From positions 2,715,858-2,779,857 of the forward strand of contig NZ_LT594621.1 in the NCBI RefSeq assembly GCF_900091655.1: a stretch of 64,000 nucleotides of DNA. Direction: 5' to 3'. Under the pieces are notes generated by a model. It was not told the DNA's origin, ran no database searches, and was given only the letters and a program-made list of their open reading frames with translations. Source of the DNA: Culturomica massiliensis (GTDB lineage Bacteria > Bacteroidota > Bacteroidia > Bacteroidales > Marinifilaceae). Of this stretch, positions 4,121 through 48,028 are shown piece after piece; position 1 is the first letter of the stretch, and each line of letters begins with the position of its first letter. Made by a program: the position numbers and the translations under genes.

Positions 4121-5017
4121 ATGCTTACGTTTCAACCCATCACACCGGAAATCAGAGAGCTAATCACCACCTACACCCTACCCGGCGAATACCGTGACAA
4201 CAACTTATCCATTTGCAACCTGTGCTGTTGGCATTTTCTCAACGAAAGCAGTTATACATTGATCGGTAAACAACTGGTTATACGCTTCCGCTACCACGAC
4301 GGCAATTCGATTTATACATTACCTTTCGGAGAAGGAAATACGGCTGAAACGTTAGAAATACTACATACAGAAGCCCAAAACAACAAACAGCCTCTGATGT
4401 TTTTCGGTTCCTCTCCTTATCTTCAAAATGAGCTTGAAAAATATTTTGAACAAAAATTCAAATACCATTACCCGCGGGATCATGCCGACTATCTTTACAT
4501 CCGCGAAAACTTAGTCACACTCAGAGGAAAAGACTACCAACCGAAACGCAATCATGCAAACCGTTTCCGTAAAAAATACGATTATCAATATTTACCGCTG
4601 ACTCCGGCCATTGTTCCTCATTGCCTGGACCTGGCTGCAAAATGGTGTGAAGAACACGATTGCCAGGACGATCCCAATTTGCAATACGAACAACAAGCCA
4701 TGAAATTTGCCATGGAACACTTTGAGACACTGGCCCTTCTAGGGGGAGCCTTATGGGTAGATAATGAAATCGTAGCTTTTACTTACGGAGCCCCGGTCAA
4801 TTACGATACATTCTGTGTACACATAGAAAAGGCTGATACAAATTTTGACGGGGCTTACACCGTAATGAATCAGGAATTTGCTTCCAGAATCCCGGAACAG
4901 TTTACTTATATAAACCGGGAAGAAGATTTAGGTATACCCGGTTTAAGAAAGGCCAAACTATCATATTCCCCGGCGCTTCTATTAAAAAAATGCCGGGCTA
5001 CACTTATTGAAGAATAA
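4121..5017 (+). CDS. DUF2156-like protein (GNAT-like fold; lysyl-phosphatidylglycerol synthase C-terminal-like)
   Basis: 298 aa with no signal peptide. The sequence (ICNLCCWHF...YLYIRENLVTLRGKDYQPKRNHANRFRKKY) resembles the DUF2156 family. Confidence 0.5.
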   Translation: MLTFQPITPEIRELITTYTLPGEYRDNNLSICNLCCWHFLNESSYTLIGKQLVIRFRYHDGNSIYTLPFGEGNTAETLEILHTEAQNNKQPLMFFGSSPYLQNELEKYFEQKFKYHYPRDHADYLYIRENLVTLRGKDYQPKRNHANRFRKKYDYQYLPLTPAIVPHCLDLAAKWCEEHDCQDDPNLQYEQQAMKFAMEHFETLALLGGALWVDNEIVAFTYGAPVNYDTFCVHIEKADTNFDGAYTVMNQEFASRIPEQFTYINREEDLGIPGLRKAKLSYSPALLLKKCRATLIEE

Positions 5018-5026
5018 AGCGGAAAC

Positions 5027-5305
5027 TTAAGAAAGTAATAAATCTTCATATTCTTTATGCCGAATCATGAATGTTTCTGCAAAAGGACAAGAAGGCACTA
5101 CATTCAGATGACTTTCCCGTGCATATTCCAATGCTTGTTTTACCAATGCCGAGCCGACTCCCTTACCTTCCAGTTCCATCGGCACAACCGTATGCAGAAT
5201 ATCCATCACGCCGTCGGCAATAACATACTCCAGATAAGCTGTACTTCCCTGTATTTCAACCTCAAACCGGCTTTTCTTTTGACTATGACCCACCTTATAT
5301 TTCAT
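5027..5305 (-). CDS. GNAT family N-acetyltransferase (small, YjdJ-like)
   Basis: 92 aa with an acetyl-CoA-binding-like stretch (LEGKGVGSALVKQALEYA). Confidence 0.6.
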   Translation of the reverse strand: MKYKVGHSQKKSRFEVEIQGSTAYLEYVIADGVMDILHTVVPMELEGKGVGSALVKQALEYARESHLNVVPSCPFAETFMIRHKEYEDLLLS

Positions 5306-5445
5306 AACTTCAGTTATTAGTAAATAAATCCATCTTATTTATCGAATTCCATCAGAAAATGATAGCGAAATATAGACAATAAATGTGAAAAACAAAACAA
5401 AGAACTATGTTTTAAAAAATAACCTTTATTTTTGCGGAACGACTT

Positions 5446-8400
5446 ATGTTGAGAAAATTATTATTTCTACTATTATCAGTCTGTTCGACATATATTTGCG
5501 TAGGTAATCCTTATGCCGACGACTTCGAATCCGTAACTCCGGATCAAGGCCTGGCCGATCCGGTCATATATTGTTTTGCCCAGGATCCGCAAGGCTATAT
5601 CTGGATCGGAACAAAAGGAGGCCTAACCCGCTATGACGGTTACAGATTTACTACTTATACCCACACGGCAGGCGATACCACCTCTCTTTCTCATTCCCGG
5701 ATCAATTGTCTGATGGCTGACGGAGATACGATATACATCGGAACAGACAGAGGGCTCAACCTATACGATATCCGTACCGGCAAAATCCGGCAACTCCTCA
5801 ATACGCAAAATTATTCCGTAAAATTTATTCTTCATGATGCAAACAAACGTTTATGGATAGGTACAAATCAAGGCTTACTGAACTTCACTGAAAAAGGCAT
5901 CGTCCGTTATTCCCGGCAAGACAGTCTTCACTATTTCCCCGGCGAATATGTCCCCTGCGGATACCTTGCCGATGACTCCGTCCTCTATGCCGGCACTCAT
6001 AATTACATCTGCCGTTACCGGGAAGACGGGAAATTCAATCCGATACCCTTGCCTTTTTCTGAAAATTTAAAAGATAACTTGCTGCTTTCACTGATCGGAG
6101 ACAAGGAATATCCGGGGCAGCTATGGCTGGGTACAGAACAAGGTTTAATCCGGACGGATATGACAACGGGCAAATCAACCTTGTTTCTCCCCAATACACC
6201 GATCAAATCTCTGCTATACGACGAAAACGGATCGCTTTGGATCGGGACGGACAACGGACTGTATATTAAATCTCCGGGGACGACTGATTTTACCTATAAA
6301 AGAAAAAGTACCGATAACCCATATTCATTGCAAAACGATGTTGTATGGACCATTTTCAAGGACCGTGAATCCAACCTTTGGTTCGGAACAGACAACGGCA
6401 TATCCATAAAACAAGCCCGCAACAGCTACAATAGTTATTCCATCCGGGAAATTACAGGCAGTAACGAAGAAAACCTGCTCTTTACCATCCACCGGGACAA
6501 TCACGGCAATCTATGGCTGGGAGGATCAAACGGACTTATCCGCTGGCACCGGGCCACCGGAAAATACGAATGGTTTAAAGCCGGTAAAAACGGATTGTCT
6601 CACAACAAAGTACGCTATTTGTATGAAGACCCGCAATCGCTCTGGATAGCTACAGACGGCGGACTCAACTGCTACAATTATGCCGGCGGACAAATCCACC
6701 GCTATATCATCCGGGACAAAAACGAAGCCTATAACTCAAACTGGATGTATTGCATCGTCGAAGATAAAGCCGGAAAACTATGGCTGGGAACTTATGAAGG
6801 CGGAATCTTTGTTGTTGATAAAAAACAGTTGTCAACAACCGCAGACATCATATATGCGGAAAATCATTTCGGTAGCTATACCGCTACCCGGTCCATATCG
6901 GGAAATATTATCAATTCACTTGCCTTGCATCCGGACGGGGCAGTATGGGCCGGTACAGACAACTCAGGCATCAACCGGATTTCGACAATTGAACAAAAGG
7001 TCAATATCTATACGCATCCGGCCGACGGTTTGAGCAGCAATTTTATCAAATCCCTTGCCATAGACGATAAAGGAGAAATATGGATCGGTGCGGACAATGG
7101 ACTCAATTACCTGAAAAAGCCTTATGAACAAATCCGGACAATAGAACCGGAAAAAATTACCGATCCGGTACGTTTTATCACAATTCAAAACGATAACCTC
7201 TGGTTCGGTACCAACATTGGAATTGCTTGTTATAATCGCACCCGCCGAAATCTCAATGCAGTATACCTGGGACAATCCTACTTTTCCTGTGCCACCTATT
7301 ACGCCCCCGAAAACCGAATGTACCTGGGAGCGCCCAACGGAGTAATCGAATTTTATCCCGACTCCCTTTTAAAAGCAGAAACCGTACCGAGTTTACAAAT
7401 TACCGGATATTCCACGGACAACGATCAAACTCAAAAAGAATTATTTGAAAGGAAAACACTTCGTTTACCTTACCGGCAAAACTCCTTTTCCGTAGAATTT
7501 TCGGCATTCCTTTACCGCAAAGCTTTTCTACGATATGCCTACCGTCTGAAAGGATACGACAATATATGGCGGGAAATACCGGGAATCTCCAACCGGGCCA
7601 CCTATATCAACGTACCTCCCGGACAATATACGTTCGAGGTAGGTAATGTTGACAGCGACGGAACATTCATGGACAATACTGCATCCGTCGAAATCACAAT
7701 ACTTCCGCCCTGGTATCGTACAACGATTGCTTTACTCGTTTACATTCTGCTGCTGGCAGGCATTGTCATCGGGATCATCTACCGCACCCACAAACGCCAC
7801 CGACAGGAAATCGAACGGGTGAAACGGGAAAAAACGATGAAATTAACACGCATGAAACTTGATTTCTTTGCCAATGTATCCCATGAATTCAAGACACCTT
7901 TGAGTCTGATTATCGGTTACATCAGTCAGTTAATCGTGCACGAAACCGACAACGAACAAAAGCGACAAATGCAGATTGTCCGCAAAAACGCAGATAAGAT
8001 ACATACACTCATCAATCAAATGCTTGATTACAAAGAAGGCGAAAACAAAGACGAGGAATTGATATTATCGGAAACAACCCTGCCTGAATTTATCCGGGAA
8101 ATATTCACACAATTTGAAACCACATTCCGGGAGAAAGGAATCAATGCCGAATTTACCGCCGATAATATCCCGCACACCTTCTCCATCGACCGGGTAAAAA
8201 TGGAATCGGTATTGACCAATTTATTATCGAATGCTTCCAAATTCGTTTCTCCACAGGGCCATATCCGGCTATCCGTAACTACGGTTCAAGAAGACGAACA
8301 ATTTTATACCGCTTCAATTTCAATAGAAGACGACGGTTGCGGAATCCCCGCAAACGATTTACCGAAAGTATTTGACCGCTATTTTATATCACAGTCTTCG

Positions 8401-32723: not shown

Positions 32724-33011
32724 ATACCGAAAAGAGGCTGAATTCTAAGTCTCTTGCAAATTTTTGAGCAAGAAAATCGTGATAAACTGAGTTTTTATTG
32801 CGATTTTCTTTTTTTCGCATGTTTTCTTTTCCCAAATCTCGTGCTTTGTAAAAGCTTTCAAAAAGAAAAATAATCCCTCCTCTTTCTGGAATATCCCTTA
32901 TGCGCTTAATATAACAAATGGCGTTCTTCTTTAAATTTCCTTGATTTCGCCTGTCCTTATAAATCCGATTTCGTTTCATTTTAATTATTATTTTAAATTT
33001 AAAATCTGATA

Positions 33012-33123: not shown

Positions 33124-35085
33124 ATGCACTCCCCACTAACTATGTACTCCCCACTAACAGTTATAATTCCATTTTTAAATGAAGGTGATGAAGTTGAAAA
33201 TACTGTAAAAAGCATAAGGGAAACAAATAGGGAGTATATCGAAATAATATTGATAAACGATTGTTCCAGTGATGGGTATGATTACGAAAGAGTAGCTACT
33301 ATATATAATACACAATATATCGTTAACCCACAGAGAATGGGTGTTGCCAAAAGCAGAGAAATAGGGGTATCTTTAATCAAAACGCCGTTTTTTATTCTTC
33401 TCGATGCTCACATGAGATTTTATAAAGAGAATTGGTGTGATATCCTTGTCTCCTATTTAGAGAAGGAGGATCGAGCATTATACTGTCTTGCTTGTAAGGC
33501 AATTGATAAATCAGGTGAACCTATAAATAATCTTATCGGATGTGGTGCTAAACTATTTTTATATGGGAACGATTTTTCAAAAATATTACAGCCGGAATGG
33601 ATAACCGAAGAAATTCCATATCAAGAAAAGGATATAGAAGAAATCCCTTGCATTTTAGGAGCGGCTTATGCCATGTCCAGTCGCTATTGGAATTACCTGA
33701 AAGGCTTATCGATGCTCAAATATTACGGGGCAGACGAAGCTTATCTTAGTCTGAAAGTCTGGTTAGAAGGCGGACGATGTATATTGATTAAAAATACGAT
33801 TACCGGGCATATCTTCAGAACAGGCACTCAAACGCCTTATGCCATGTATTGGCCGCATTTATTTTTTAATAAACTGATTATTTCTGAAACAGTATTGCCG
33901 GAAGATTATAAACGATATGTTCACGCAAAATTAATGGCTTTGAATCCCGAAGCCTACATGACGGCATATGCAGAACTTATAAAAGTAAAAGACGATATCG
34001 TCAATTTACGGTCCTATTATCAAGCTATTTTTACAAAAAACTTTGATTTTTTCAAGCAAATCAATCAAAAATACATCGATTCTGAAAATACCGATATCCC
34101 CTCTATAAAAATAAACGAGGAAGACGGTATCCGAAAAGTTTTGAAATCGGTTTATGATTATTTGATTAAAAATAATTCCTCAACGATTGGTTTTGGAGTA
34201 GGTGGCTTAGGAGAAATAATGTATATGGCTGAATATGCTAGTATATACGCTAAAGACGAATTACCTAAGGTAAAAAAATTACTCGACGAATTGCTGGAAA
34301 ATAGTAAACTTGAGCAATTCGATTTCGAAACGGGGCTATCTGGCTTAGCCTGGGGACTGAATTATCTGAACCGTCATTTCCATGCTTTTGATATCGATGA
34401 ACAATTCAAAGAATCAGATAAGCTGTTATGTAATGTTTTGTATGATAAAATCCAAAAACAGGATTTTGCCATCCCGGGCGGTGCGTTGGGAATTTCTTTC
34501 CCTTTTATGGAAAGAAAAAACAATAAAACTTTAAATGATACTATCGACATATTGTTAAGATATATAAATGCTTATATCTTTCGGTACAAAGATCGGATTC
34601 CCCGGTTCACATTATTCGAGATTACCTATTTTCTGATTTTAGCCCGTGACAAAAATTTTTGTATTTCAGATTCTCTGCATCTCGTATCTCAAGTTCTGTC
34701 AGACAGTGATAAAACAGATTATCTTTCCGAATGTATCTCGGCCTACCTTATGATAGCTATAAATGAAAAAACAGAAAATTCCTCAAAAGATTTCCATTAC
34801 AATACACTGAGAAAGTCGGCGGCTTGCCGGGAAGCTGTTTTGGCTAAAGTATCGGAAATAGGTATTTATAAAGGATATCCATTACTGATGTATATATTCC
34901 ATGCTATGTATAGAAAAACGCAAGAAACGGTATTTAGAGATGCCCTGGCCTATTGGAAGCAAGAAACGGCATTGAAAACAGCAAGCATACTGCTTCACAC
35001 CTCCGTTTTAAGCGAAACTGAAAAGAGTTTTCTATATGGAATCGCAGGGGCCGCATTCGTTATATTAAAAACAAATCAACAATGA
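33124..35085 (+). CDS. Peptide glycosyltransferase candidate. It has an N-terminal GT-A (family-2-like) domain with ppGalNAc-T-like motifs, fused to a roughly 350-aa all-alpha C-terminal domain.
   Basis: 653 aa. The N-terminal 270 aa carry VIIPFLNEGDEV, LINDCSSD, LLDAHMRF (DxH), YYGADEAYLSLKVWLEGG (Gal/GalNAc-T-motif-like) and GHIFR. The C-terminal part is helical with GxxG-type repeats (GFGVGGLG, GLSGLAWGL, LYGIAGAAF). It is the first gene of the AT-rich operon. Confidence 0.6.
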   Translation: MHSPLTMYSPLTVIIPFLNEGDEVENTVKSIRETNREYIEIILINDCSSDGYDYERVATIYNTQYIVNPQRMGVAKSREIGVSLIKTPFFILLDAHMRFYKENWCDILVSYLEKEDRALYCLACKAIDKSGEPINNLIGCGAKLFLYGNDFSKILQPEWITEEIPYQEKDIEEIPCILGAAYAMSSRYWNYLKGLSMLKYYGADEAYLSLKVWLEGGRCILIKNTITGHIFRTGTQTPYAMYWPHLFFNKLIISETVLPEDYKRYVHAKLMALNPEAYMTAYAELIKVKDDIVNLRSYYQAIFTKNFDFFKQINQKYIDSENTDIPSIKINEEDGIRKVLKSVYDYLIKNNSSTIGFGVGGLGEIMYMAEYASIYAKDELPKVKKLLDELLENSKLEQFDFETGLSGLAWGLNYLNRHFHAFDIDEQFKESDKLLCNVLYDKIQKQDFAIPGGALGISFPFMERKNNKTLNDTIDILLRYINAYIFRYKDRIPRFTLFEITYFLILARDKNFCISDSLHLVSQVLSDSDKTDYLSECISAYLMIAINEKTENSSKDFHYNTLRKSAACREAVLAKVSEIGIYKGYPLLMYIFHAMYRKTQETVFRDALAYWKQETALKTASILLHTSVLSETEKSFLYGIAGAAFVILKTNQQ

Positions 35086-37448
35086 AATATTTATATTTGA
35101 TTTTTATATTGACTCTATCGCTGCAATCCGTAAAATCGCAGATTTTAATAGGACGTGTTACCGATCTCTCGGACAAACCTTTGTCGGAAGCTACGATTGT
35201 GATTACAGACAGCATGTATTACAACATCCTTATCACAGACATGAAAGGAGGGTTTCGTGCCTTGGACTGTCCCGACAGCATAACAATCCGGATTTCGTAT
35301 GTGGGATTCGCTACCTGGCAGAAAGATATAGTCATAAGTCAACTGAAGGACAGCTTGTTAACAGTAAAACTCGAACCGTCGAATATGGAATTGGACGACG
35401 TTATTGTGACCGCGCAACCGCCGAAAATCAAAAAAGAGCTGGGTAAGTTCGTAATGGACAACGTATCTGTATCGCCCTTTGCCAAAGGAACCAATGCACA
35501 GGGTTTTCTTCGTTTTATTCCTATTTTGAACACTGCCACTAACGGCACCGTCAAGATATTACACAGAAATGAGCCGGCAACCATTCAAATTAACGGCCGG
35601 CCGGCAACCATGCCGCTTAACCTTATACCAGCCCGCAATATCGATCGTATCGAAATAATCGCTGTTCCAGGAGCAGAATACGGCGGCAGCAAAGGCGGAA
35701 TAATCAATGTCGTGTTAAAAAAAGAAATGGACGAAGGATTGAAAGCAGTAGTCAGTCTGAGCGATAAACAAAGCTATTATAATACACAGAATATCGGAAC
35801 ATTTATCTACTATTCAGGAAAAAAAATACGTATTATGGGTAGTGTTTCCGGAAATAATTTCAAAATGCGGTTAAAAAACGACTATAAACATATTCTGGCT
35901 GCCGAAAATAAAGTTTGGGATATCGTTTCTCCAATTAAAATTACCAAAAAGACCTTAAGTGCAAGCTTTAATCTGGAATACTTGCCTACCGACCGGCAGA
36001 CATGGGGATTCCAGGTATCCGCTTTCGGTTCTGAAGACGAAAATACCTTCCATAGCAAGACAGTTTATTACAGGACAGAAACCATTACACCGGATTCTAT
36101 TTTTAAGACAAAGATCAAGAACGACAATCCATTCAGACCGCACCTAAGCGCAAACGTGAGTTATAACCTGAAAATGGATAACAACGGAAGTAAATGGAAC
36201 ACCAATCTATATTACGGGCATTACAACAACAAAACCAATACCCGTGAAATAACCGGAGAATATCGCCAAAACGACCCATCCGGCAAAGAAATCAATGCGA
36301 CACAATATACTTCCGTAAAAGTAGACTACAGCGGGTTGACAACCGATCTCCACAAAAAGTTCAATGACGACAACACATTGAAAAGCGGAGCCAATTTATA
36401 TTATTACCACATGAACAACAAACTAGCTTATGAACAGACAAGCGGTACAAAATACGGACCTGAGCCTGTGGGTAGCTATTCGTTTCTTCACAAAGAGTTT
36501 ACCGGAGCTTTTTATATCACTTACGAGCGGGTATGGTCAGATATGTTCGAAACCTCATTAGGAATAAGAACACAATACCGATGGGTAAACGGTATCGACA
36601 CAAGGTGGAGTAACCGCATAATTAAAGACTATTTCCATATTCTTCCGTCTGTTTCTCTGTTATTTACACCAAACGATGAGCATGAGTTCTCATTAGATCT
36701 AAGCTCGTCGGTATCTTACCCCTCACTTAACAACCTGACCTCTTTCAAATATTTTTTGTCAGCCAATGAATACTCTCAGGGGAATCCGGATTTACTCGCT
36801 TCGCGTAATTTTGATTTCATGTTTTCCTATAATTTCTTCGATGATTACAGTTTCGTTGTCGACTATATGCACGATACCGACTGCTGGAGCGATTTTGTCA
36901 TCCCGGACAAAGACGGCAATATCGTACATACACAAGCGAATTACGGCAATTGTGATGATATAGACTTCGCATTTATCATTCAAAAATATTTTTTCAACAA
37001 TCGTTGGATGCTTAGTAGTGACCTCGGTGCAAATTATACTTATGATAAAGGAAGTTATAAAGGAATCAGAATAGATAATAAAAATTGGAGTTACAACTTC
37101 CGGCTGAGCAACAATATTTTCTTGTCAAAGGATCAGAGTTGGCTAGCAGTAGTTGTATATAAATTTTCGAGTAAATCCAGAAATACAGTAACCATACCTG
37201 CCCATCATTCGATAGAAGCCAGCATACAAAAGACATTTAAAAATAGTTCGCTTTCAATTAATGCAGAGACGATGTTTAATAATAAAATGCAACTCAGCAG
37301 CAATTATGCGGAATCAGGGTATAGCTATAAGCTGACCAAACAATTTTATCCGTCTGTTTCGATAAATTATACCTATACATTCGGAAATAAAAAAGTAAGA
37401 AATATATATGAACGAAAAGATAGTAATATTTTAGATCGGATAAAATGA
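35082..37448 (+). CDS. Outer-membrane beta-barrel protein (TonB-dependent-receptor-like: CarbopepD_reg-like N-domain plus plug plus barrel)
   Basis: 788 aa. It has a signal peptide (LSLQSVKSQ), a GRVTDLSDKPLSEATIVI motif and a plug-like region (ATIQINGRPATMPLNLIPARNIDRIEI). It overlaps the upstream GT gene by 4 nt. Confidence 0.65.
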   Translation: MKYLYLIFILTLSLQSVKSQILIGRVTDLSDKPLSEATIVITDSMYYNILITDMKGGFRALDCPDSITIRISYVGFATWQKDIVISQLKDSLLTVKLEPSNMELDDVIVTAQPPKIKKELGKFVMDNVSVSPFAKGTNAQGFLRFIPILNTATNGTVKILHRNEPATIQINGRPATMPLNLIPARNIDRIEIIAVPGAEYGGSKGGIINVVLKKEMDEGLKAVVSLSDKQSYYNTQNIGTFIYYSGKKIRIMGSVSGNNFKMRLKNDYKHILAAENKVWDIVSPIKITKKTLSASFNLEYLPTDRQTWGFQVSAFGSEDENTFHSKTVYYRTETITPDSIFKTKIKNDNPFRPHLSANVSYNLKMDNNGSKWNTNLYYGHYNNKTNTREITGEYRQNDPSGKEINATQYTSVKVDYSGLTTDLHKKFNDDNTLKSGANLYYYHMNNKLAYEQTSGTKYGPEPVGSYSFLHKEFTGAFYITYERVWSDMFETSLGIRTQYRWVNGIDTRWSNRIIKDYFHILPSVSLLFTPNDEHEFSLDLSSSVSYPSLNNLTSFKYFLSANEYSQGNPDLLASRNFDFMFSYNFFDDYSFVVDYMHDTDCWSDFVIPDKDGNIVHTQANYGNCDDIDFAFIIQKYFFNNRWMLSSDLGANYTYDKGSYKGIRIDNKNWSYNFRLSNNIFLSKDQSWLAVVVYKFSSKSRNTVTIPAHHSIEASIQKTFKNSSLSINAETMFNNKMQLSSNYAESGYSYKLTKQFYPSVSINYTYTFGNKKVRNIYERKDSNILDRIK

Positions 37449-37501
37449 AAAAGCGGAACCCGAAAAGCATAAAGAGTAGGGAAAATATTATATTTTATAT
37501 T

Positions 37502-37801
37502 ATGAACCATAAATTGAAAATTGTGGAAGACTTTCTGAATTCATTGGAAAGCGAGCAACTGAAAGCAAATCAGGATACAATGCTCATAAGCGGTTCCTAT
37601 GAAAATCAATCAGGAGCAATAGGAACTAACGCAAGCAGATGTGTTAATGGAACAACCGCTTGTATTGGTTCTATTAATGACAGGCGGTGTTCCAATGGTG
37701 TTTGTGATTATACGATTAATGGTAAAAAATGTACGACAGTTAATGTCCCGACACCGGCACCGACACCGACACCAACCCCTGCAACGGGAGGCTCAATTTA
37801 G
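37502..37801 (+). CDS. Precursor peptide A1 (leader plus 5-Cys core plus Pro/Thr-rich tail)
   Basis: The sequence is MNHKLKIVEDFLNSLESEQLKANQDTMLISGSYENQSGA / IGTNASRCVNGTTACIGSINDRRCSNGVCDYTINGKKCTTVNVPTPAPTPTPTPATGGSI. Its leader is about 75% identical to that of A2. An alternative upstream start at 37445 adds a 19-aa basic extension that A2 lacks. Confidence 0.7.
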   Translation: MNHKLKIVEDFLNSLESEQLKANQDTMLISGSYENQSGAIGTNASRCVNGTTACIGSINDRRCSNGVCDYTINGKKCTTVNVPTPAPTPTPTPATGGSI

Positions 37802-37812
37802 TTGAGATTCTC

Positions 37813-37843
37813 AGGGTTTATGTAGATATTTTTGCATAAACCC
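37813..37843 (+). terminator. Intra-operon hairpin (partial terminator/attenuator) directly after precursor A1
   Basis: AGGGTTTATG-(11 nt)-CATAAACCCT forms a perfect 10-bp stem followed by TTATTA. Confidence 0.5.
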
Positions 37844-37917
37844 TTTATTAAAAGAAAGATTTATCAGGAATTTCATTTCTATCTATTAAGCCATTACTCA
37901 CATTCTACCGATAAAAA

Positions 37918-39228
37918 ATGACCGATTACAAATTCAGTAAGTATAATTCGATATTAAAAACCGATGCTAAATTAAACGTATTGTACAATGGGTTGAGCGA
38001 CCGATTCATAGTGTTCAGAAAAAAACTCCGGGCACTGTTGGATAAAGATATCGAAGAATTGAAAAATACATCGGAAGAATTTTATCGTACATTAGTAGAA
38101 GCTGATGCAATTATAGCAACCGACCGAGACGAATTCGCAGAACTGAAAAGCCTGAGTGAAAAGATAGACAACGCACAGCATGAATGCAAAATAATTGTTA
38201 ATCCGACGATGGATTGCAATTTTAAATGCTGGTATTGTTATGAAAATCATGTCGTCAATTCAAAAATCAATTCCGATATTCTGGAACGGATCAAACGATT
38301 GATCAGGCGACAAACAGAAAATGAGCAAATCGAATTTATAGATCTGGCATTCTTCGGAGGAGAACCTCTTCTCCAATATCCTGCCATCAAAGAACTGATC
38401 GACTATACCAGGGAACAATGCTGTTATCAAAAAAAGAATTACCACCTTGGATTTACTTCAAATGGATACTTACTGAATGAGGAAATAATCAATCATCTGA
38501 GCAGTATCGAAGACTCCAAAAGCTTTCAGATCACTCTCGACGGAGACCGGGAAAAGCATAATAAAATCAGGCATGAAAAAAATAACAGTGACTCATATGA
38601 TACAATCATATTCAATAGTAAAATACTATTGAAACATAAAATACACGTCCTGCTAAGAATAAACTATACATTGCATAATATATTATCCGTCAAAAATATA
38701 TTAGCAGATATAAATGATATTCCGGAAACAGACAGAAAATACCTCAGGATCAGTTTTCACCGGGTATGGCAGGATATAGACCATGATGAGGGAAATAAAA
38801 CATTGATCGCAGATATCATAGAGTCATTTAAAAGCGAATTCGATCAAACTAACGATTCATATCATATGAATGACATGCATTACCCATGCTACGGAGATAA
38901 ACAAGGGACAGTAGTTGTGAATTACAATGGGGATGTCTATAAATGTACCGCACGGAATTTCTCGGCAGAAAATCGATATGGCATATTACTATCCGATGGG
39001 ACAATAGCCTGGGATCAGCAAAAACTTGAAAAACGGAAACATGCTAAAATGAACAAAGAGATATGTAAATCATGCCGTATATTACCACTATGTGGAGGAG
39101 GATGTGCACAAAATTCGGTCGAAAATCCCGATAATTTTTGCGGATTAGCTTTCACTGAATCCGACAAAGACCGAATCATATTTAATCATTTTTACAATAG
39201 ATATTTAAACAATACATACAATGAATAA
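37918..39228 (+). CDS. Radical SAM/SPASM-domain peptide maturase (sactisynthase/ranthipeptide-synthase-like) with an N-terminal leader-recognition-like extension
   Basis: 436 aa. The CX3CX2C motif (CNFKCWYC) lies at about residue 100 after a roughly 95-aa N-terminal domain. A GGEP-like motif (FFGGEPLL) is present. The C-terminal Cys-rich SPASM region is CYGDKQ...YKCTARNF...CKSCRILPLCGGGCAQN...FCGLAF. Confidence 0.75.
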   Translation: MTDYKFSKYNSILKTDAKLNVLYNGLSDRFIVFRKKLRALLDKDIEELKNTSEEFYRTLVEADAIIATDRDEFAELKSLSEKIDNAQHECKIIVNPTMDCNFKCWYCYENHVVNSKINSDILERIKRLIRRQTENEQIEFIDLAFFGGEPLLQYPAIKELIDYTREQCCYQKKNYHLGFTSNGYLLNEEIINHLSSIEDSKSFQITLDGDREKHNKIRHEKNNSDSYDTIIFNSKILLKHKIHVLLRINYTLHNILSVKNILADINDIPETDRKYLRISFHRVWQDIDHDEGNKTLIADIIESFKSEFDQTNDSYHMNDMHYPCYGDKQGTVVVNYNGDVYKCTARNFSAENRYGILLSDGTIAWDQQKLEKRKHAKMNKEICKSCRILPLCGGGCAQNSVENPDNFCGLAFTESDKDRIIFNHFYNRYLNNTYNE

Positions 39229-39487
39229 AATAAAAATCGTAAAAGACTTTCTAAATTCCTTAGAAAGCGAACAAATGCAAGACGGACAAGATATTCTGTT
39301 ATTGTCAAAACCACAGGAGAACTATTCTGCCGGAACTTCTATCAACAGCCGATGTTATAATGGGAATGCGACTTGCAACAGCAGTCAGAATGAAAAAAAA
39401 TGCTTTAACGAAAAAAATTACTGCAACCAAGCCTACAATTCCGGAAGGTGTAAAGAACAGAAACCCCGTTGGGCGAAGAAGAAATAG
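39221..39487 (+). CDS. Precursor peptide A2 (leader plus 5-Cys core plus Lys-rich tail)
   Basis: The sequence is MNKIKIVKDFLNSLESEQMQDGQDILLLSKPQENYSAG / TSINSRCYNGNATCNSSQNEKKCFNEKNYCNQAYNSGRCKEQKPRWAKKK. Its start overlaps the rSAM stop by 8 nt. Confidence 0.7.
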   Translation: MNKIKIVKDFLNSLESEQMQDGQDILLLSKPQENYSAGTSINSRCYNGNATCNSSQNEKKCFNEKNYCNQAYNSGRCKEQKPRWAKKK

Positions 39488-39493
39488 GAATAA

Positions 39494-41677
39494 ATGAGAA
39501 AAATACCATTTTTCCGCCAACGCTCATCCAATATATGCGGACCGACCTGTATACAAATGCTGTGTGCTTATTATGGCAAATTGTACAATATAGATACGAT
39601 CATACAGCATTGTGAATTAACGAAGGCCGGCGTATCCATCAGGGATATCGTCAATATGGGAGAAAGCTTGGGATGCTATGCTTCATCTTTTAGCGTAAAC
39701 CCGGCAGAAGCCCGAAGAATCCCCCTTCAAGCCATCCTTTATCTTAAAGAAGGTCATTTTGTTATCCTTGAAAAAATAAAATATAAACGAGGTCATTATT
39801 TCTACAAAATAATAGATCCGGATTACGGCCGGGTGGAATTGTCTGAAAAGGCTTTTATTGAAAAATGGATGGATAATAACAGAGGATTCGGGGTACTCCT
39901 GGTACCTAAAGACGATTTTCTTACTATCAATCCTGAAATTAATCTCCGGAACCGTAATAAAGAGATTTTTACTGATATAAAATCGGTGGCCAGCATTCAT
40001 AAGAAAAAATTCATATGGGTGATCTTACTGACTTTTATCGTGCTTGGAACCAATTGGGCCATGCCGATTCTGTTACAGAAAACGATAGATGACGGTATTA
40101 TGGCAAAGGATATAAATTTCGTTTGGCTGATGTTATTGGCTCAATTCGTCTTCTTCATCGGGTTTATGTTATCAAACACAATAACCAATCTTCTTTCGGC
40201 AAAAATAAATTTTAAAATCAACATTGACTTTGTCCAAAAATACTTCAACAAAGTTGTCAGGCTTCCGATCAATTTTTTTGATACAACGTTCCGGTCGGAT
40301 TTGATACAACGATTGTCCGACCTCGGAAGGATTAACGGATTTATAACAGACAATATTGTCGATATTGTCTTTTCATTTGCAAACCTCATCGTTTTTTCAG
40401 TCATCCTGATGATCTACAACAGTAAGATATTTTTATTATTCATTCTTTTTAGTACCCTTTCTATCGTTTACTCATTGCTGTTCCTGAAAAAAAGAAAAAG
40501 TTTGGACTATTCTTTCTTCTCAATAGATTCACAAAGACGGAATTCTGTATATGAGTTGATTATGGGAATGTCCGAGATCAAGATCAACAATGCTTACCAT
40601 TCCCGGATCAAGGCGTGGAATATCATTGAATCCAAACTGAATAAACTGAAGCTAAAAATATTATACTGGAGCTTTTACTCATCTGAGGGCGTTTCAATTA
40701 TCGGACGTCTAAGGGATATCGTACTGACAGCCTTATCAGCATATTATGTGATCCAGGATCAAATGACAATGGGTACAATGATGATGATAAGTTTTGTTTT
40801 AGGACAGCTTTCTGCCCCTATAAGCGATATGATGTCCTACACTAAAATTATTCAGGACATTAAATTGTCTTATGAACGGGTATTTGATATATATAGTAAA
40901 AAAGATGAAGATGATGAGAAAATGATACATCTAAATCATCAGATAAGCGATGGTATCCGATTTGAAAACGTATATTTTAAATATCCAGGAACATCGAATC
41001 CATATATACTCAAAGATGTAAGTATTGATATCCCGGCGGGAAAAACTACCGCTATTGTCGGTCCCAGTGGAGGAGGCAAAACAACCATGTTAAAATTGAT
41101 CCTGGGTTTTTACCAACCGTTGCAAGGAGCCATCAGGATCGATCGGTACAATTTAAATGACATCCGGCGGGAATCATGGAGAGAACAATGTGGTATTGTA
41201 ATGCAAGACGGTTATATCTTCAGCGCCTCAATTGCCGAAAACATAGCTTTACATGAAGAGGAACCTGATATCAAGCGGCTTATATATGCGGCAAAAATAG
41301 CTAATCTATACGATTTCATTGAAAATTTACCGATGAAATTCAACACCAAAATTGGTGAAATAGGCCTCAATCTCAGCGGAGGAGAAAAACAACGTCTCTG
41401 GATAGCGCGTGCTGTTTACAAAAATCCTGCTATCGTATTATTTGATGAAGCTACTTCCTTGTTAGATGCGAATAATGAAAAAACAATCATTGGTAATTTA
41501 ACTGCCTTTTTATCTAAGAGAACAGTAGTTATTATTGCTCATAGGCTAAGTACGGTAAAAAATGCCGATAATATTATTTTCTTGGATAAAGGAACTATTG
41601 TGGAACAAGGAACTCACGATGATTTGATTAAATTACGCGGAGCCTATTATAATTTAGTTAAAAACCAACTGAATTAG
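39494..41677 (+). CDS. Peptidase C39 domain-containing ABC transporter (bacteriocin leader-cleaving exporter, SunT/LagD-like)
   Basis: 727 aa. The N-terminal C39 domain carries catalytic Cys and His context (NICGPTCIQM, EGHFVIL). Six TM helices follow. The ABC module shows Walker A (GPSGGGKTT), the signature motif (LSGGEKQR) and Walker B (VLFDEATS). Confidence 0.85.
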   Translation: MRKIPFFRQRSSNICGPTCIQMLCAYYGKLYNIDTIIQHCELTKAGVSIRDIVNMGESLGCYASSFSVNPAEARRIPLQAILYLKEGHFVILEKIKYKRGHYFYKIIDPDYGRVELSEKAFIEKWMDNNRGFGVLLVPKDDFLTINPEINLRNRNKEIFTDIKSVASIHKKKFIWVILLTFIVLGTNWAMPILLQKTIDDGIMAKDINFVWLMLLAQFVFFIGFMLSNTITNLLSAKINFKINIDFVQKYFNKVVRLPINFFDTTFRSDLIQRLSDLGRINGFITDNIVDIVFSFANLIVFSVILMIYNSKIFLLFILFSTLSIVYSLLFLKKRKSLDYSFFSIDSQRRNSVYELIMGMSEIKINNAYHSRIKAWNIIESKLNKLKLKILYWSFYSSEGVSIIGRLRDIVLTALSAYYVIQDQMTMGTMMMISFVLGQLSAPISDMMSYTKIIQDIKLSYERVFDIYSKKDEDDEKMIHLNHQISDGIRFENVYFKYPGTSNPYILKDVSIDIPAGKTTAIVGPSGGGKTTMLKLILGFYQPLQGAIRIDRYNLNDIRRESWREQCGIVMQDGYIFSASIAENIALHEEEPDIKRLIYAAKIANLYDFIENLPMKFNTKIGEIGLNLSGGEKQRLWIARAVYKNPAIVLFDEATSLLDANNEKTIIGNLTAFLSKRTVVIIAHRLSTVKNADNIIFLDKGTIVEQGTHDDLIKLRGAYYNLVKNQLN

Positions 41678-42925: not shown

Positions 42926-44143
42926 TCATTTCATCTTTCTGATCTTCCTTTTTATCCGGAAATAATAACCGGTTACTGCAAAAACAGCTCCGAGTAATGA
43001 AGCCAGACAAGACAAAATCCGTGTTGTCATTCCACCCCAGGTACCGGTATGTACGGAATAAATCCATCCCCTTATCTTTCCGGATTTCGGCTGGTCCTTA
43101 TACAACTGTACATCTGTGATTTGTCCGCTTGCCGGATCAAAAAGATAACGATCGCTTCCTCTCGTATTTCCATAATCAGCGGTAGCAACAGTTGCCGAAC
43201 CGTCCTGAATTGTAATGGAATTGAAAGAGGAATACCGCTCTTGCAAAACGGATAACACCTCCGCCCACCGGATATAATCCGGTTTTTGCGACTCTTTTCT
43301 TTTTCCTGCGGATAATCCGGTTTCTTTTACAGCAACACGGCTTTCCCGGCCGGAAAAACTTCTATCCCCGTCCTTCTTTTCCACCCCCCTTCCGATCTTC
43401 CCTTCTTGTCCCATACTTCGTCCTCCGGCTGAAATCGGGACATGTACCTCTGTCCGTCCGGTAGTGCCTCCGAACACTGCATAAAAAGCATCACGATACC
43501 AGCCGAACGACCAGGTTAACCCGGTTAAAGCAAGGGCAAGCAAAAACAATGCCGCATAAAAACCCCCGGACACATGCAAATCATAAAAAAAACGATGCCA
43601 ACCGGCCCTGGTTTTTATTTTCAACCGGTTTTTCAGCATCTTCCTGTTACATGGAAACCAAACCGCAAGTCCGCTCACCAAAATAACGACAAACACCAAT
43701 GTTGCATATCCCACCACGGCTTTCCCCAGCGAAAAGCTGCCGTCCCGTTTATAAGAATCGAGCAACCAGCGGTGAAGGCGCATTGTTTGCATGAAAAATC
43801 CCTGTCCGTCGTCTATCCCGGTTACCTCTGCCGTATAAGGATCGATAAAACAGACTGCTTTCTTTCCCGGCAAAACCAACTGATAGGTCCGTCTCGGATC
43901 AGAAGAAATCCGGATACCGTTTATTTTAACAGAATCGGGTAATTGTTGCTGTGCCGAATAAATCAGGAAGGCAGGCGAAAGCGGCTCACCTTTGATTTCT
44001 CTGACAAAATAACGGGAAGGATAACATAACTCCAGGATTTCTGTTTCAAATACCAATATTGCACCTGTCAGGCAGACAATCGTTATGATAATACCGAAAG
44101 GTATCGATAACCATAAATGCATTTTCGCAAAAAACTTTCTCAT
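42926..44143 (-). CDS. PepSY-associated TM helix protein (XusC-like)
   Basis: 405 aa with N- and C-terminal TM helices. It is last in an operon with a TBDR and a DUF4374 gene. Confidence 0.65.
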   Translation of the reverse strand: MRKFFAKMHLWLSIPFGIIITIVCLTGAILVFETEILELCYPSRYFVREIKGEPLSPAFLIYSAQQQLPDSVKINGIRISSDPRRTYQLVLPGKKAVCFIDPYTAEVTGIDDGQGFFMQTMRLHRWLLDSYKRDGSFSLGKAVVGYATLVFVVILVSGLAVWFPCNRKMLKNRLKIKTRAGWHRFFYDLHVSGGFYAALFLLALALTGLTWSFGWYRDAFYAVFGGTTGRTEVHVPISAGGRSMGQEGKIGRGVEKKDGDRSFSGRESRVAVKETGLSAGKRKESQKPDYIRWAEVLSVLQERYSSFNSITIQDGSATVATADYGNTRGSDRYLFDPASGQITDVQLYKDQPKSGKIRGWIYSVHTGTWGGMTTRILSCLASLLGAVFAVTGYYFRIKRKIRKMK

Positions 44144-44162
44144 CCCCGGTCATATTTGATTG

Positions 44163-45542
44163 TCAATTCCGGAAATAAGTCAGTTTGCCTACCCCGCTGA
44201 TCTTCTCCGATTCTACGGTAAGTCCTTTTGTTGCAACAGCCGTTTTCGGATCAATCCGGTAAATGGCCGGCTGATTTCCGTCAGTTGTCGTTACAGGCAT
44301 ATAGGCAATACCGTTTTCAGAAAACGGTGTATTACCGAACCCGGAAATGACATCCTTGGCAGGCATACCTGTTACATAAGTAAGCCTTCCGGACTCTCCT
44401 TTGTAAATAGCCAGTTCATTGGCTGTAAACCCACTCTCCGTCAAAGGCCTGTCATACATCAGCAACAGAAAATAATCTTCGGTAATATGCCAGCAACGTA
44501 AAAACGACCTACCCTCGGTTTGTTCTTCGAGATTACAGTAGTAATTCGGATCGAATTCCTCTGTTCCGGCTTTAATACGCACCACTCCGGCAGGTAAAGC
44601 CGTTTTTTGTACCTGGGCGGTCATCGTCTTGGCATAAGACGGTGAAAATACATATACATCACCATTGTCGGCTGCCCAAATCGTTTGGTAATATTGCGAT
44701 TTGTAACGTCCGCAGGCATAACTGATCTTATCCGTCCGGATTAATTTCGGACTCTCGAACCTCTCATCGGCATATATGGCAATCCAGGCTTCATCCGGAT
44801 ACTGTGTCCACTGTAATTCACCTTTCTCATAAGCACCGCTGCCACTTCCCCCCGATTCGGTCTTCACCAACTCCGGATACTTAACATACTCGCCGTTATT
44901 CGCCTTTACACCGTACTTACTCAATCCCATCGGAATCGCCGCAGAATAAATCTTATTACCGGCTTGCAGAATACCGGCCAAAGTGACAAACTCACCGTTT
45001 CCCAAATAATTCTCTGCCATGAGGACACTTTGATTCGTTGCAAACGTTTCATTGACCACATCCAGGTAAGACAACAGAAAACCCTTCGGCAGAAAACCGT
45101 TTCCATCGGACATATTCTCACCCAGATTACCGGTGGAAGAAGTGATAATATAATTCTTATAAATACCGTAAGATGTAAACCGTTTGATCTCATACGTATT
45201 GTCACGCTCTTCCGCTTTCCCTTTTTCATTCAGAACATACGAAGAAGTTACGCCTGCATTCCCCTGATTATATACCAGACGATACAGATATTTGTCCTGA
45301 TAAAAAATCCATTGAGTTCCGCTCTCTGTGGTCAAACCGTTATTTTTAGCCGACACACTTCCCTCATCGAGTTTATCGCTGATCAGCAAATAATTGGCAT
45401 CCCCGACAGAAGCAGCAATGACAAAATCAGACAATGCGCCATCACCTCCGTCACCCCCGCCCGATACATGATCGTCGCAGGATATTGTTAAACTCAAACA
45501 CAAAATAACGGCTAAACTCCGGTTAAAATAATTCTTTTTCAT
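44163..45542 (-). CDS. DUF4374-like surface lipoprotein (XusB-like siderophore-binding candidate)
   Basis: 459 aa with a lipoprotein signal (LSLTISCDD). It sits between the TBDR and the PepSY gene, as in Bacteroides xusABC. Confidence 0.55.
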
Positions 45543-45643
45543 ATAAACATCGTTTTTAAAACTATAACATCATATTCAAAATAACAGCACAGGACATTCC
45601 ACAACTTACCAAGCCGACCTTCCTTTCCTCGTCCCTTCCTTTT

Positions 45644-48028
45644 TCACCGTCCCCCTGAAAGATACACCCTCACCTTGCCGTAAAATGCCCTGCCGGCCTT
45701 CTGCAAACTAAAATTGTCATACAACTTTTCATTCGTAAAATTCCGGCACTCGAAAGAAAAATTGTAGCGTCCCTCCTGTACACCGTAAGAAATTGTCAGA
45801 TTGTGAGAAAATTGTGTCGGTACGATAAATTTAGACTCACTGCCGACAGCTTCCGAATAAAGCGGAAAACGATGCATATATAAATTATCGTAAGTAACCG
45901 TCAGCTTATTCCCTTTTCGTAACAGGTCAGGCCAATAAAAAGTGATGTCCGAATTGGCAAACCGGTAAGGCAGATTAGGCATCCGGGCTTTATATGTCAG
46001 GCTGGCCTGATTCGACCCGCTGGTGACAGTCTTCACATTGTCGCGAACATCCATCTGCGTGAAATTTCCTCCGGCACTTATCCGGTTCGCAAAACCGTAA
46101 CGAAAAGAAACAGTATACCCTTTCGTCAGCACTTTGCCGTGATTTACATAAGTAGCTCCGTACTTCCCGCCACTCAAACCGGATATATTCCTTTGGATGT
46201 AATCCTTTGTATTGCGATAAATCAAACCGCCCTCGGCATACACAGAATGCTTACCGAACAACTCATTATAACTCAGATTCAAATTTACATTATCACTATT
46301 TTCAGGTTTCAGTGCAATATCTCCGGTCTCGAGGTCCTCATCCCCGAACATCTCCTCATTGGTAGGTAAACGGTAAGCCTTTTCATAAGATAACTTCCCC
46401 TGCAGACTCTTCAATATAAAGTACGTACCGGCTGCTCCGTAACCCATTGCTCCGATCGAATTTGTTGTCCGTATATACTTGTCCTGTGCGGACGAAGTAG
46501 CAATCGGACCCGCAATAAATTGATCGTAATATTTACCGAAAACAGAAATATTCCAATGTTCCTTTGGCATCAGCCGATAAGAAAATCCACTGATATTCTT
46601 ACGGGTTTCCTTCGGGATGACATTTGCCTCCGAACTATTGTCCAGCAAAGAGCGGTTCGACCGCCGGAAATCATTAATCACATGGTTAAAAGTAAATACA
46701 TGGGACCTGCCGAGACGGTAATTGACCGTAAAAGTCCCGTTCCAGTTATTATTATCCGAACGGATATTCTGGTAAGACTGTTCCCCGGGCATCCGGAGAG
46801 GACGCATTTCTCCCCGCCAGTTAAACTCATAGGAAGAAGTATCGACATTATGAGTTACATTCTTATTGTAATTGGCCGTCAAAACCACATCCAGCCCTTT
46901 AGTAAACAAATCCCGCTTACGGTATTCCAGCGATGGCATCAGAGAATAACCTTTACGGTATTTCCCGCCGAATACAATTTCCTGCCGTACCCCCGTTTGT
47001 ATATCCTTATACATATTCGACCAGGTAAATCCGAACACCAAACGATCTGCCCAGATCTTACCCGCAACACCGATCTTTCCGGCAACAGCCTCGTTATGAT
47101 AATTATCATGGAAGCGTTTTACATGCTCTATCTTTTTCTTATTGATTGCGCCGGTCTCGAAATTCTTCACCGGAGTATCCACATAATAATCGTTATCGGA
47201 ATAATTCTGGAACGCATTGATTTCATATATAAAGCCGCTCCGGAATGTCTGTCCGAAATTGACGTATGACTTATGCGTATTAAACGATCCGTAAGAATAA
47301 GAGGCATCCAGAAACCAGCTTTTCTGATTCCTTTTAGTAACAATATTGATCACTCCGCCGATAGCATCTGTTCCGAAACCGACGGGAACGACACCCTTAT
47401 ACACCTCGATACGCTCGGCAAAATTGACCGGAATATTATTCAGACCGAACGAGCTCCCGACGCCTTCCTGCGGGACACCGTCAATAAACACCTTGACATG
47501 TTTACCGCTGAATCCGTCCATCATCAACTGCATATCCGAACCTACACCCCCCGATTCACGGATTTTCATACCCGGAGCTTGTGCCAGGGCCTCACTCAAA
47601 TTCTGTGTCGAATTTTGCAAAGCCTTCGTATCGAGTGCTATCGCGTTAAATGCCGAACGCTTCAAACGACTTATCCCATTAGAAACGACCACGGCTTCTT
47701 CCAGTTCTTCCACCTGCGGGATAAGCGTTACATTTTGCTTATGCCGTTCGCCCGCAACCAACAACACCTGTATTTCCTCCGTCTTATAACCGACAGCAGA
47801 TACCACAAGCGTATAGCGACCTGCAGGAGCTTTCAGGTGATAAATTCCCTCTCCGTTAGCAACACCTCCATAACTGCTACCTTTCAGATAAACAGTTGAA
47901 AAATCCACGGTACCCCCTTCCGCAGATAATATCTTACCCGAAATCAAAGCTTGATCTTGCGAAAATGCCGATACCGCTGATAATAAAAAAACAAAACAGA
48001 GGGAAAATTTCAAAAAAAATGCTCTCAA
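45644..48028 (-). CDS. TonB-dependent siderophore-type receptor (XusA-like)
   Basis: 794 aa. It has a signal peptide, a CarbopepD_reg-like N-domain and a plug (GMKIRESGGVGSDMQLMMDGF...VFIDGVP). The barrel ends in an aromatic residue. Confidence 0.8.
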   Translation of the reverse strand: MRAFFLKFSLCFVFLLSAVSAFSQDQALISGKILSAEGGTVDFSTVYLKGSSYGGVANGEGIYHLKAPAGRYTLVVSAVGYKTEEIQVLLVAGERHKQNVTLIPQVEELEEAVVVSNGISRLKRSAFNAIALDTKALQNSTQNLSEALAQAPGMKIRESGGVGSDMQLMMDGFSGKHVKVFIDGVPQEGVGSSFGLNNIPVNFAERIEVYKGVVPVGFGTDAIGGVINIVTKRNQKSWFLDASYSYGSFNTHKSYVNFGQTFRSGFIYEINAFQNYSDNDYYVDTPVKNFETGAINKKKIEHVKRFHDNYHNEAVAGKIGVAGKIWADRLVFGFTWSNMYKDIQTGVRQEIVFGGKYRKGYSLMPSLEYRKRDLFTKGLDVVLTANYNKNVTHNVDTSSYEFNWRGEMRPLRMPGEQSYQNIRSDNNNWNGTFTVNYRLGRSHVFTFNHVINDFRRSNRSLLDNSSEANVIPKETRKNISGFSYRLMPKEHWNISVFGKYYDQFIAGPIATSSAQDKYIRTTNSIGAMGYGAAGTYFILKSLQGKLSYEKAYRLPTNEEMFGDEDLETGDIALKPENSDNVNLNLSYNELFGKHSVYAEGGLIYRNTKDYIQRNISGLSGGKYGATYVNHGKVLTKGYTVSFRYGFANRISAGGNFTQMDVRDNVKTVTSGSNQASLTYKARMPNLPYRFANSDITFYWPDLLRKGNKLTVTYDNLYMHRFPLYSEAVGSESKFIVPTQFSHNLTISYGVQEGRYNFSFECRNFTNEKLYDNFSLQKAGRAFYGKVRVYLSGGR

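Follow-up and report, generated by a model that had tools for sequence, protein, structure and literature searches.

A candidate family of radical SAM-modified Cys/Asn-repeat peptides, encoded with a glycosyltransferase/LanC-like fusion in Culturomica massiliensis

Results

Here, we describe a predicted peptide-maturation cluster in a 64,000-nucleotide stretch of the genome of Culturomica massiliensis (NCBI RefSeq assembly GCF_900091655.1, contig NZ_LT594621.1, positions 2,715,858 to 2,779,857 of the forward strand), which we call the window and whose own numbering is used throughout. Six close-packed forward-strand genes lie between 33.1 and 41.7 kb. The first (33124-35085) encodes a glycosyltransferase (GT) of 653 residues, with a GT-A domain at about residues 10-300 and a LanC-like domain at about 335-650, and its stop codon overlaps the start of the second gene, which encodes an outer-membrane beta-barrel protein (OMP) of 788 residues (35082-37448) resembling TonB-dependent receptors (Pfam OMP_b-brl_3, E 4e-43, and CarbopepD_reg_2). 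There follow the small gene A1 (37502-37801, 99 residues), a radical S-adenosylmethionine (rSAM)/SPASM peptide maturase of 436 residues (37918-39228), the small gene A2 (39221-39487, 88 residues), whose start overlaps the rSAM stop by 8 nt, and an ATP-binding cassette (ABC) exporter of 727 residues with a C39 peptidase domain (PCAT; 39494-41677). The exporter matches Peptidase_C39 (E 3e-21), ABC_membrane and ABC_tran in Pfam, has both catalytic motifs (CGP and GHF), and matches the NHLP-type and bacteriocin ABC families of NCBIfam below their cut-offs.

Judged by their alignment, A1 and A2 are paralogues with a common leader (45% identity, E 2e-20 by BLASTP; DFLNSLESEQ identical in both), as had been put forward in the original prediction, which was made from the window without database searches. 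The A1 leader (37502-37618) has 39 residues (M1-A39), ends in ENQSGA and is modelled by AlphaFold as a helix at residues 3-19, while that of A2 (39221-39334, overlapping the rSAM stop) has 38 residues (M1-G38) and ends in ENYSAG. These leader ends were read correctly in the prediction, as were the five core Cys of each peptide: residues 8, 15, 24, 29 and 38 of the A1 core (37619-37732), which consists of two C-x-N...C-x2-S-x-N-x3 modules and a terminal Cys, and residues 7, 14, 23, 30 and 39 of the A2 core (39335-39487). A1 then continues into a Thr/Pro tail, TTVNVPTPAPTPTPTPATGGSI, and its stop codon (37733-37801), a candidate O-glycosylation tract; A2 ends in a basic tail, KEQKPRWAKKK, and its stop codon, and has no Thr/Pro (T/P) tract. 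In an alignment of 72 sequences, the GA and AG at the cleavage sites coincide with the GG of relatives, which agrees with the proposal of a double-glycine-type leader suited to the downstream C39 domain. By these features A1 and A2 are precursors of RiPPs (ribosomally synthesised peptides that are modified post-translationally) with a double-glycine-type leader. RefSeq calls both genes in C. massiliensis and names each product “hypothetical protein”.

The cores are built from a module of about 16 residues, C-x-N-x(2-5)-C-x2-[S/A/T]-x-N-x3, which is repeated in tandem and closed by a final Cys. Across the 85 family sequences analysed, all 145 C-x(4-7)-C segments (100%) have Asn at position 2, and 99% of 145 C-x8-C segments have it at position 5, the latter also having Ser, Ala or Thr at position 3 in 97%, against a background of 14% Asn in the family cores. 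Chance falls far short of accounting for the pattern. In the 72-sequence alignment, whose mean column identity is only 23%, C47, N49, C63, N65, C68, N73 and C77 are invariant, and F11, C54 and N59 are present in at least 90% of sequences. An Asn that is essentially invariant lies 3-5 residues upstream of each Cys, the first included. The number of Cys is 2n+1: two units (five Cys, as in A1 and A2) occur in 61 of the 85 sequences and three units (seven Cys) in two, P0129 with spacers [6,8,7,8,7,8] and P0141 with [7,8,6,8,6,8]. A sixth, distant Cys is found in 25 of 87 relatives analysed. We rejected the reading of these small genes as spurious open reading frames (ORFs), as their Cys and Asn do not vary among 85 representatives diverging from one another by at least 50%.

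The original prediction had further described the scaffold as symmetric about its central Cys and, by analogy with the glycocin sublancin, as a helix-loop-helix hairpin with nested cross-links. The sublancin spacing that it cited was accurate (Cys at 7, 14, 22, 29 and 36 in PDB 2MIJ). The composition of the cores is turn-rich, 46-50% being Asn, Gly, Ser, Thr, Pro or Asp against 30% in sublancin, which speaks against the analogy. The symmetry itself was not upheld. The spacing of A1 and A2 (6, 8, 4 or 6, 8) has the form (a,b,a,b), where a mirror would give (a,b,b,a), and because the second and fourth spacers are equal in 64 of 80 relatives with a five-Cys block, while none of the 80 is mirror-symmetric, the scaffold is best described, from these alignments, as a translational tandem repeat of a two-Cys module. 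Nor was the hairpin recovered: the AlphaFold model of A1 has no helix in the core, although at a confidence (pLDDT 66) so low that we use it only as weak evidence against helices. Glycocins carry fixed C-x6-C helix staples. Here the spacing is (a,8,c,8), where a and c take values from 4 to 7, so that a variable C-x(4-7)-C alternates with a C-x8-C that is rigid across the family, the reverse of the glycocin pattern, which counts against the analogy. Alignment to glycocins had been suggested as a check, and a search of the PDB with the precursor profile matched none. Moreover, scans of all ORFs of at least 100 residues between 28.9 and 49.5 kb against Pfam and NCBIfam found no thioredoxin- or DsbA/B-like gene.

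The extent of the family depends on how it is approached. A word-indexed search returned a handful of close homologues, all of which keep the five Cys. The suggested metagenome search for homologues of the leader KIV[EK]DFLNSLESEQ was unproductive: the pattern [VI][EK][DN]FLNSLE gave 88 matches in GTDB genomes, none of them confirmed, and a search of JGI metagenomes returned the window's own sequence alone. Since the leader searches were nearly empty, the close A1/A2 subfamily appears to be rare. The wider family surfaced only through a precursor profile search, which found 84 cluster representatives (E ≤ 1e-3) among 1.84 billion proteins, and through the maturase, which has 148 relatives in GTDB species genomes, including Alistipes, Prevotella/Segatella (Segatella copri), Bacteroides (Bacteroides ovatus), Muribaculaceae, Paludibacteraceae, Chitinophaga and Empedobacter. 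Locus-level comparisons of the rSAM family cover 80 loci fetched out of these 148; individual loci, here and below, carry L numbers. Small ORFs beside the rSAM relatives have the core pattern and, before it, the common leader I-x2-F-[IV]-x-S-L-E ... Q-x3-L-L ... GG; a C39-ABC gene occurs in most of the 80 loci, around a precursor that adjoins the rSAM gene; and OMP homologues adjoin the precursor and rSAM genes in many, so that by synteny the OMP is a conserved partner of the precursor/rSAM/ABC module. When A1, A2 and ten members of the wider family were scanned against Pfam and NCBIfam, no family matched.

The maturase is, on its domain matches, CteB-like with a complete SPASM domain. Its radical SAM motif, C100-x3-C104-x2-C107, and the seven Cys of the SPASM region are invariant among close homologues, and it scores 46.7 bits against TIGR04085 SPASM (cut-off 27). 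RefSeq names it “radical SAM/SPASM domain-containing protein”. Its closest solved structure is CteB (5WGG, E 3e-18), a SCIFF maturase that forms thioethers. The best NCBIfam matches are CefB, TIGR04463, Clo7bot, geopeptide, PapB, QhpD and the SCIFF maturase, which all act on Cys-rich peptides and whose cut-offs all lie far above the scores obtained. As the enzyme is closest to thioether-forming SPASM rSAM enzymes, we favour thioether formation as its chemistry. The original prediction had offered two fates for the central Cys, glycosylation or an rSAM-made thioether; the thioether survives as the best-supported chemistry and would extend to every Cys, while glycosylation of the central Cys is not supported.

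Two further observations concern the rSAM loci. In many Muribaculaceae- and Bacteroides-type loci a secreted protein of about 110-135 residues, absent from the window, is encoded just 5' of the precursor (L026 7174-7569, L028 6883-7290, L039 7238-7600, L041 7163-7498, L044 6941-7303, L062 7071-7454, L066 6744-7151 and others). This protein has a signal peptide and two motifs, (H)R-x-P-x-R-P and “YE(L/I)WD(A/E)”, and could be an immunity or partner protein. In L002, L003 and L004, which have an A2-type gene only, the rSAM gene is split at the same point into ORFs of 222 and 201 residues in three independent samples, and the OMP gene is likewise split (in L002, rSAM about 6631-7935 and OMP 4230-6562), which may reflect a decaying cluster or a programmed frameshift.

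The N-terminal GT-A domain of the GT resembles polypeptide GalNAc-transferases (GT27) at about 20% identity, its stretches LDAH and GHIFR aligning with LDSH and GHVFR of GalNAc-T2. D94, H96 and H229 are invariant within the GT family and correspond to the residues that bind manganese in GT27 enzymes, the D-x-H motif and the distal His. The GT-A fold, this metal site and the Gal/GalNAc-T motif region are all present, and the enzyme is not like the SunS-family S/O-glycosyltransferases. The C-terminal ricin-type lectin domain is absent and its place is taken by a LanC-like alpha-toroid without zinc ligands. In a profile alignment with MadC, AWCYG stands opposite ksGD and FCHG opposite LynG, so that the Cys-Cys-His ligands are missing; read by eye, the window GT has YKG at the CHG position. 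A single-sequence search of the PDB with the LanC-like domain returned nothing, and the fold match needed a profile.

This fusion has more than 450 homologues, of which all the named ones belong to Bacteroidota and most are annotated with PF00535 and PF05147. Six of the seven fusion contexts examined (L006-L008, L090, L091 and L093) lie inside a LanB/LanC lanthipeptide cluster with an intact stand-alone LanC, and the fusion is apparently an undescribed, recurrent tailoring enzyme of Bacteroidota class I lanthipeptide clusters. A Peptidase_S41 gene often stands next to it in such clusters, whose precursors have TPAP or (TP)n tracts. The order GT-OMP-A1-type-rSAM is found again in two more lineages, whose flanks differ: L001, whose GT is 51% identical in its C-terminus and which has both A1-like and A2-like genes, and L094, whose GT is about 48% identical and which has two A1-type precursors. 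The A2-only loci L002-L004 have neither GT nor A1. Given the stop/start overlap with the OMP gene, the order conserved in L001 and L094 and the joint absence of GT and A1 from L002-L004, the GT belongs, by gene order, to the peptide cluster. L094 also has a second GT2 gene (1481-2308, 275 residues) preceding its GT-LanC-like gene, which hints at a disaccharide.

The T/P tract of A1, VPTPAPTPTPTPAT, has counterparts in other precursors that adjoin the fusion: TPAPTPTPTPTPKPTTPTPTPTP in L008, KTPAPTP in L093, TTPAPK in L091, CPTPTLPPPV in L090, TPTPEPTPTPPPVTTTTT in L089, TTTTTTTKDPT in L077 and TTTPPPLTKEPETT in L001. TPAP, (TP)n or poly-Thr tracts occur in 9 of 14 GT-adjoining precursors compared with 1 of 23 without GT (Fisher p 1.4e-4; Mann-Whitney p 7e-6, with kinship among loci ignored). 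The test used a windowed T+P metric on precursor cores chosen by hand from ORF lists; an automatic precursor filter had missed L001 and L089 and was replaced by the hand-checked cores, and a count of TP/PT dipeptides was too coarse to tell GT-positive and GT-negative rSAM loci apart and was discarded. Within Culturomica the A1 tail (37733-37798) varies in length among strains (VPTPTPTPATGGSI, VPTPAPTPTPTPATGGSI and VPTPAPAPAPTPTPATGDPI, across the window and cluster members P0245-P0247), the Cys core being identical. A PATG(G)S-like tail ending also occurs in L094 (PGATGS).

The 5' boundary of the cluster is marked by a terminator-like hairpin on the forward strand (32770-32810; a 17-bp stem followed by a T-run), which ends the upstream flotillin operon, the flotillin-like gene finishing at 32723. 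The start of A1 is ambiguous, as an in-frame ATG at 37445 would give a protein of 118 residues and both versions are in RefSeq. We favour 37502 because in all family members the F-x2-S-L-E motif follows the first residue by about 8-10 residues. Just 5' of this start lies a conserved 27-nt block, GAACCCGAAAAGCATAAAGAGTAGGGA (37456-37482, forward strand), which occurs once in the window, precedes A1-type genes only and equals the L001 copy apart from the single position that the search pattern left open (N). The L001 proteins are only 41-60% identical to those of the window despite this near-identical block. Over about 33 nt the two loci differ by two changes, both non-synonymous in the frame of the long ORF, and this conservation at the DNA level suggests a nucleotide-level, possibly regulatory, element instead of an extended A1 N-terminus. 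In the gap from A1 to the rSAM gene, a second forward-strand hairpin (37813-37844; 14-bp stem, -18.9 kcal/mol, z -3.35), which the terminator scan did not call because it lacks a clean T-run, may be an attenuator that yields an excess of precursor transcript and so sets the ratio of precursor to enzyme.

Directly downstream of the cluster, on the reverse strand (42926-48028), are genes for a PepSY_TM protein, a DUF4374 (XusB-like) protein and a TonB-dependent receptor, a locus of the xenosiderophore-uptake type. Its synteny is kept in L005 but not in L001, and we therefore place it outside the peptide cluster. A hexapeptide acetyltransferase that adjoins the GT in L005 was considered as a part of the system and rejected, being absent from the window.

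Discussion

Here, we propose that A1 and A2 belong to an uncharacterised, widespread Bacteroidota family of radical SAM-modified secreted peptides, and we put the probability of this explanation, taken as a whole, at roughly 0.6. What is new is the precursor family and the combination of enzymes; the kind is known, namely SPASM radical SAM-modified, PCAT-exported RiPPs. We found no description of the precursor family or of GT27-like/LanC-like fusions in the searchable literature.

In light of the repeated Cys/Asn module, what might the cluster make? The leader would dock on the rSAM/SPASM enzyme, which would then iteratively install intramolecular thioether cross-links from the Cys thiols to nearby acceptor carbons. 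The PapB product, freyrasin, contains six C-x3-D rings. By comparison, the product here would carry five small consecutive rings, like beads on a string. The acceptors would most likely be the invariant Asn upstream of each Cys, for which NxxcB, which forms a Cys-Asn beta-thioether with an Asn acceptor upstream of the Cys, offers a precedent (PMC9389541). Cys-to-upstream-Asn rings are thus what we infer as most likely from the sequences and from this analogy. On A1, but not on A2, the upstream GT would additionally place O-glycans at Thr or Ser in the Thr/Pro tail, and its dead LanC-like domain would be the module that binds the peptide. The tail, and not the central Cys, is probably the glycosylation site, and this is the most economical reading. 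The recurrence of T/P tracts in precursors adjoining the GT fusion is the evidence that the GT may transfer GalNAc to Ser or Thr of a peptide. The PCAT would cleave after GA in A1 or AG in A2 and export the peptides, and the OMP would handle their passage through the outer membrane or their re-uptake.

Several points weigh against this explanation. The best score of the rSAM enzyme is 160.6 bits against a cut-off of 600 (CefB), and no equivalog cut-off is reached. The conserved Asn could be structural turn formers instead of cross-link acceptors, and the sequence fits alpha-, beta- or gamma-carbon linkage, or a different radical reaction, equally well. A GT27-like fold neither proves a peptide acceptor nor identifies the sugar. 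The association of GT with T/P tracts leaves phylogeny aside and uses hand-picked cores; two GT-positive loci, L080 and L083, have no clear tract, and the tails of L094 are short (PGATGS). The role given to the OMP is a guess.

The alternative that fares best, which we nonetheless regard as doubtful, is that A1 and A2 are disulfide-rich or otherwise folded mini-proteins whose Cys and Asn are conserved for folding, while the rSAM enzyme performs some other chemistry, such as epimerisation, C-C or C-O cross-linking or modification of Asn. The reactions of SPASM rSAM enzymes are diverse, this one falls short of every curated family, the peptides are exported to an oxidising periplasm, and the sixth Cys found in about a quarter of relatives would make the count even. 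Against this, the odd number of Cys in most members (five or seven) argues against simple disulfide pairing, the nearest relatives of the maturase (CteB, PapB, SCIFF, QhpD and CefB-type) all make thioethers on Cys-rich peptides, and an iterative cross-linker would need just what is seen here, one upstream Asn paired with each Cys.

There is also the question of whether the GT acts on peptides at all. It might be a cell-envelope glycan enzyme that merely lies upstream of a plain rSAM peptide cluster, a view we consider unlikely. Its annotation (“glycosyltransferase involved in cell wall biosynthesis”) is in keeping with such a role, most loci of the rSAM family work without a GT, and A2 has no obvious target tract. 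However, the overlap of its stop codon with the start of the next gene and the terminator upstream of it tie it to the cluster, three lineages whose flanks differ have kept it together with A1-type precursors, it is joined to a peptide-handling fold of the LanC-like type in a combination that recurs in lanthipeptide clusters, and its closest structural relatives glycosylate polypeptides.

A glycocin-like product, with a helix-loop-helix fold, nested C1-C5 and C2-C4 disulfides and a free, S-glycosylated central Cys, is highly improbable: five Cys spaced numerically close to those of sublancin, a GG-type leader with a C39 exporter and a glycosyltransferase in the operon all speak for it, but the Cys form a translational repeat with no mirror-symmetric member and with seven-Cys members, the C1-C2 spacer takes lengths of 4 to 7 and the C2-C3 spacer keeps to 8, the cores are rich in Asn, Gly and Ser and modelled (at low confidence) without a helix, no PDB glycocin is similar in sequence, the operon has no thiol-disulfide oxidoreductase, the A2-only loci and most family loci have no glycosyltransferase, and the rSAM enzyme, which is always present, would be left without a role.

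More speculatively, A1 and A2 may be the founders of a new RiPP class in which a single SPASM rSAM enzyme makes 2n+1 Cys-to-Asn rings and in which one subfamily also carries mucin-type O-glycans, added by a GT27-like enzyme recruited through a dead LanC domain; taken jointly, we hold these propositions to be a tentative conjecture with the odds against it. If they were true, the GT would be the first bacterial GT27-like polypeptide glycosyltransferase and would be shared by radical SAM and lanthipeptide pathways. The GT27-like/LanC-like fusion suggests bacterial O-glycosylation of secreted peptides on mucin-like Thr/Pro tracts. Peptide O-glycosylation is relevant to an organism of the mucus-rich gut, and would add a portable glycosylation module for RiPP engineering. 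The rSAM family is a common one among Bacteroidales of the gut and rumen, and the motif C-x-N-x(2-5)-C-x2-S-x-N-x3-C, with its invariant Asn, is precise and testable and predicts the sites of cross-linking. The analysis also corrects a tempting but wrong analogy with glycocins.

How does the cluster compare with known systems? Like the glycocins (sublancin 168 with SunA-SunS, glycocin F and thurandacin), A1 and A2 have five Cys at numerically similar positions and a leader of the double-glycine type, in a cluster with a C39-ABC exporter and a GT-A glycosyltransferase. Unlike them, they have no homology to glycocins, their Cys form a tandem repeat, an rSAM enzyme is present and a disulfide oxidoreductase is not, and the GT is GT27-like and fused to a LanC-like domain rather than SunS-like, with the Thr/Pro tail as its probable acceptor.

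The ranthipeptides and other thioether RiPPs (freyrasin/PapB, SCIFF/CteB and NxxC peptide/NxxcB) share with A1 and A2 a Cys-rich precursor that adjoins an rSAM/SPASM maturase and, in the PapB system, a donor/acceptor motif that is repeated and short-range. They differ in that A1 and A2 have the module C-x-N...S-x-N-x3-C and a Cys count of 2n+1, form a precursor family new to Pfam and NCBIfam, and come from a Gram-negative Bacteroidales host with a dedicated outer-membrane barrel and, in one subfamily, a GT partner. In addition, the window rSAM enzyme is below every cut-off of the curated ranthipeptide maturases, and the chemistry we assign to it is predicted from sequence. Compared with the GT27 enzymes of mucin-type O-glycosylation, the window GT is bacterial and cytoplasmic and carries a dead LanC-like domain instead of a ricin-type lectin domain.

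Also from Bacteroidales are the GG-Bacteroidales rSAM/pseudo-rSAM/LanC-like systems (TIGR04148-04150; biosynthetic gene clusters BGC3-5), which combine rSAM enzymes with GG-leader precursors and a LanC-like protein without zinc ligands, BGC3 also having a glycosyltransferase (PMC10352776). The window differs from them in that its rSAM enzyme is only a weak match to TIGR04148 (48 bits, cut-off 300), it lacks a pseudo-rSAM gene, its LanC-like part is built into the GT as a domain, and its precursors match no curated family. The same 2023 survey of Bacteroidales notes regions with rSAM, LanC and GlyS, and analyses different clusters (PMC10352776). Finally, in the Bacteroidota class I lanthipeptide clusters (pinensin-type LanB/LanC), lanthionines are formed by LanB together with an intact LanC that is a protein of its own, whereas the window has neither and uses an rSAM/SPASM enzyme; the two have in common the GT-LanC-like fusion, GG-type leaders, a PCAT and precursors with T/P tracts.

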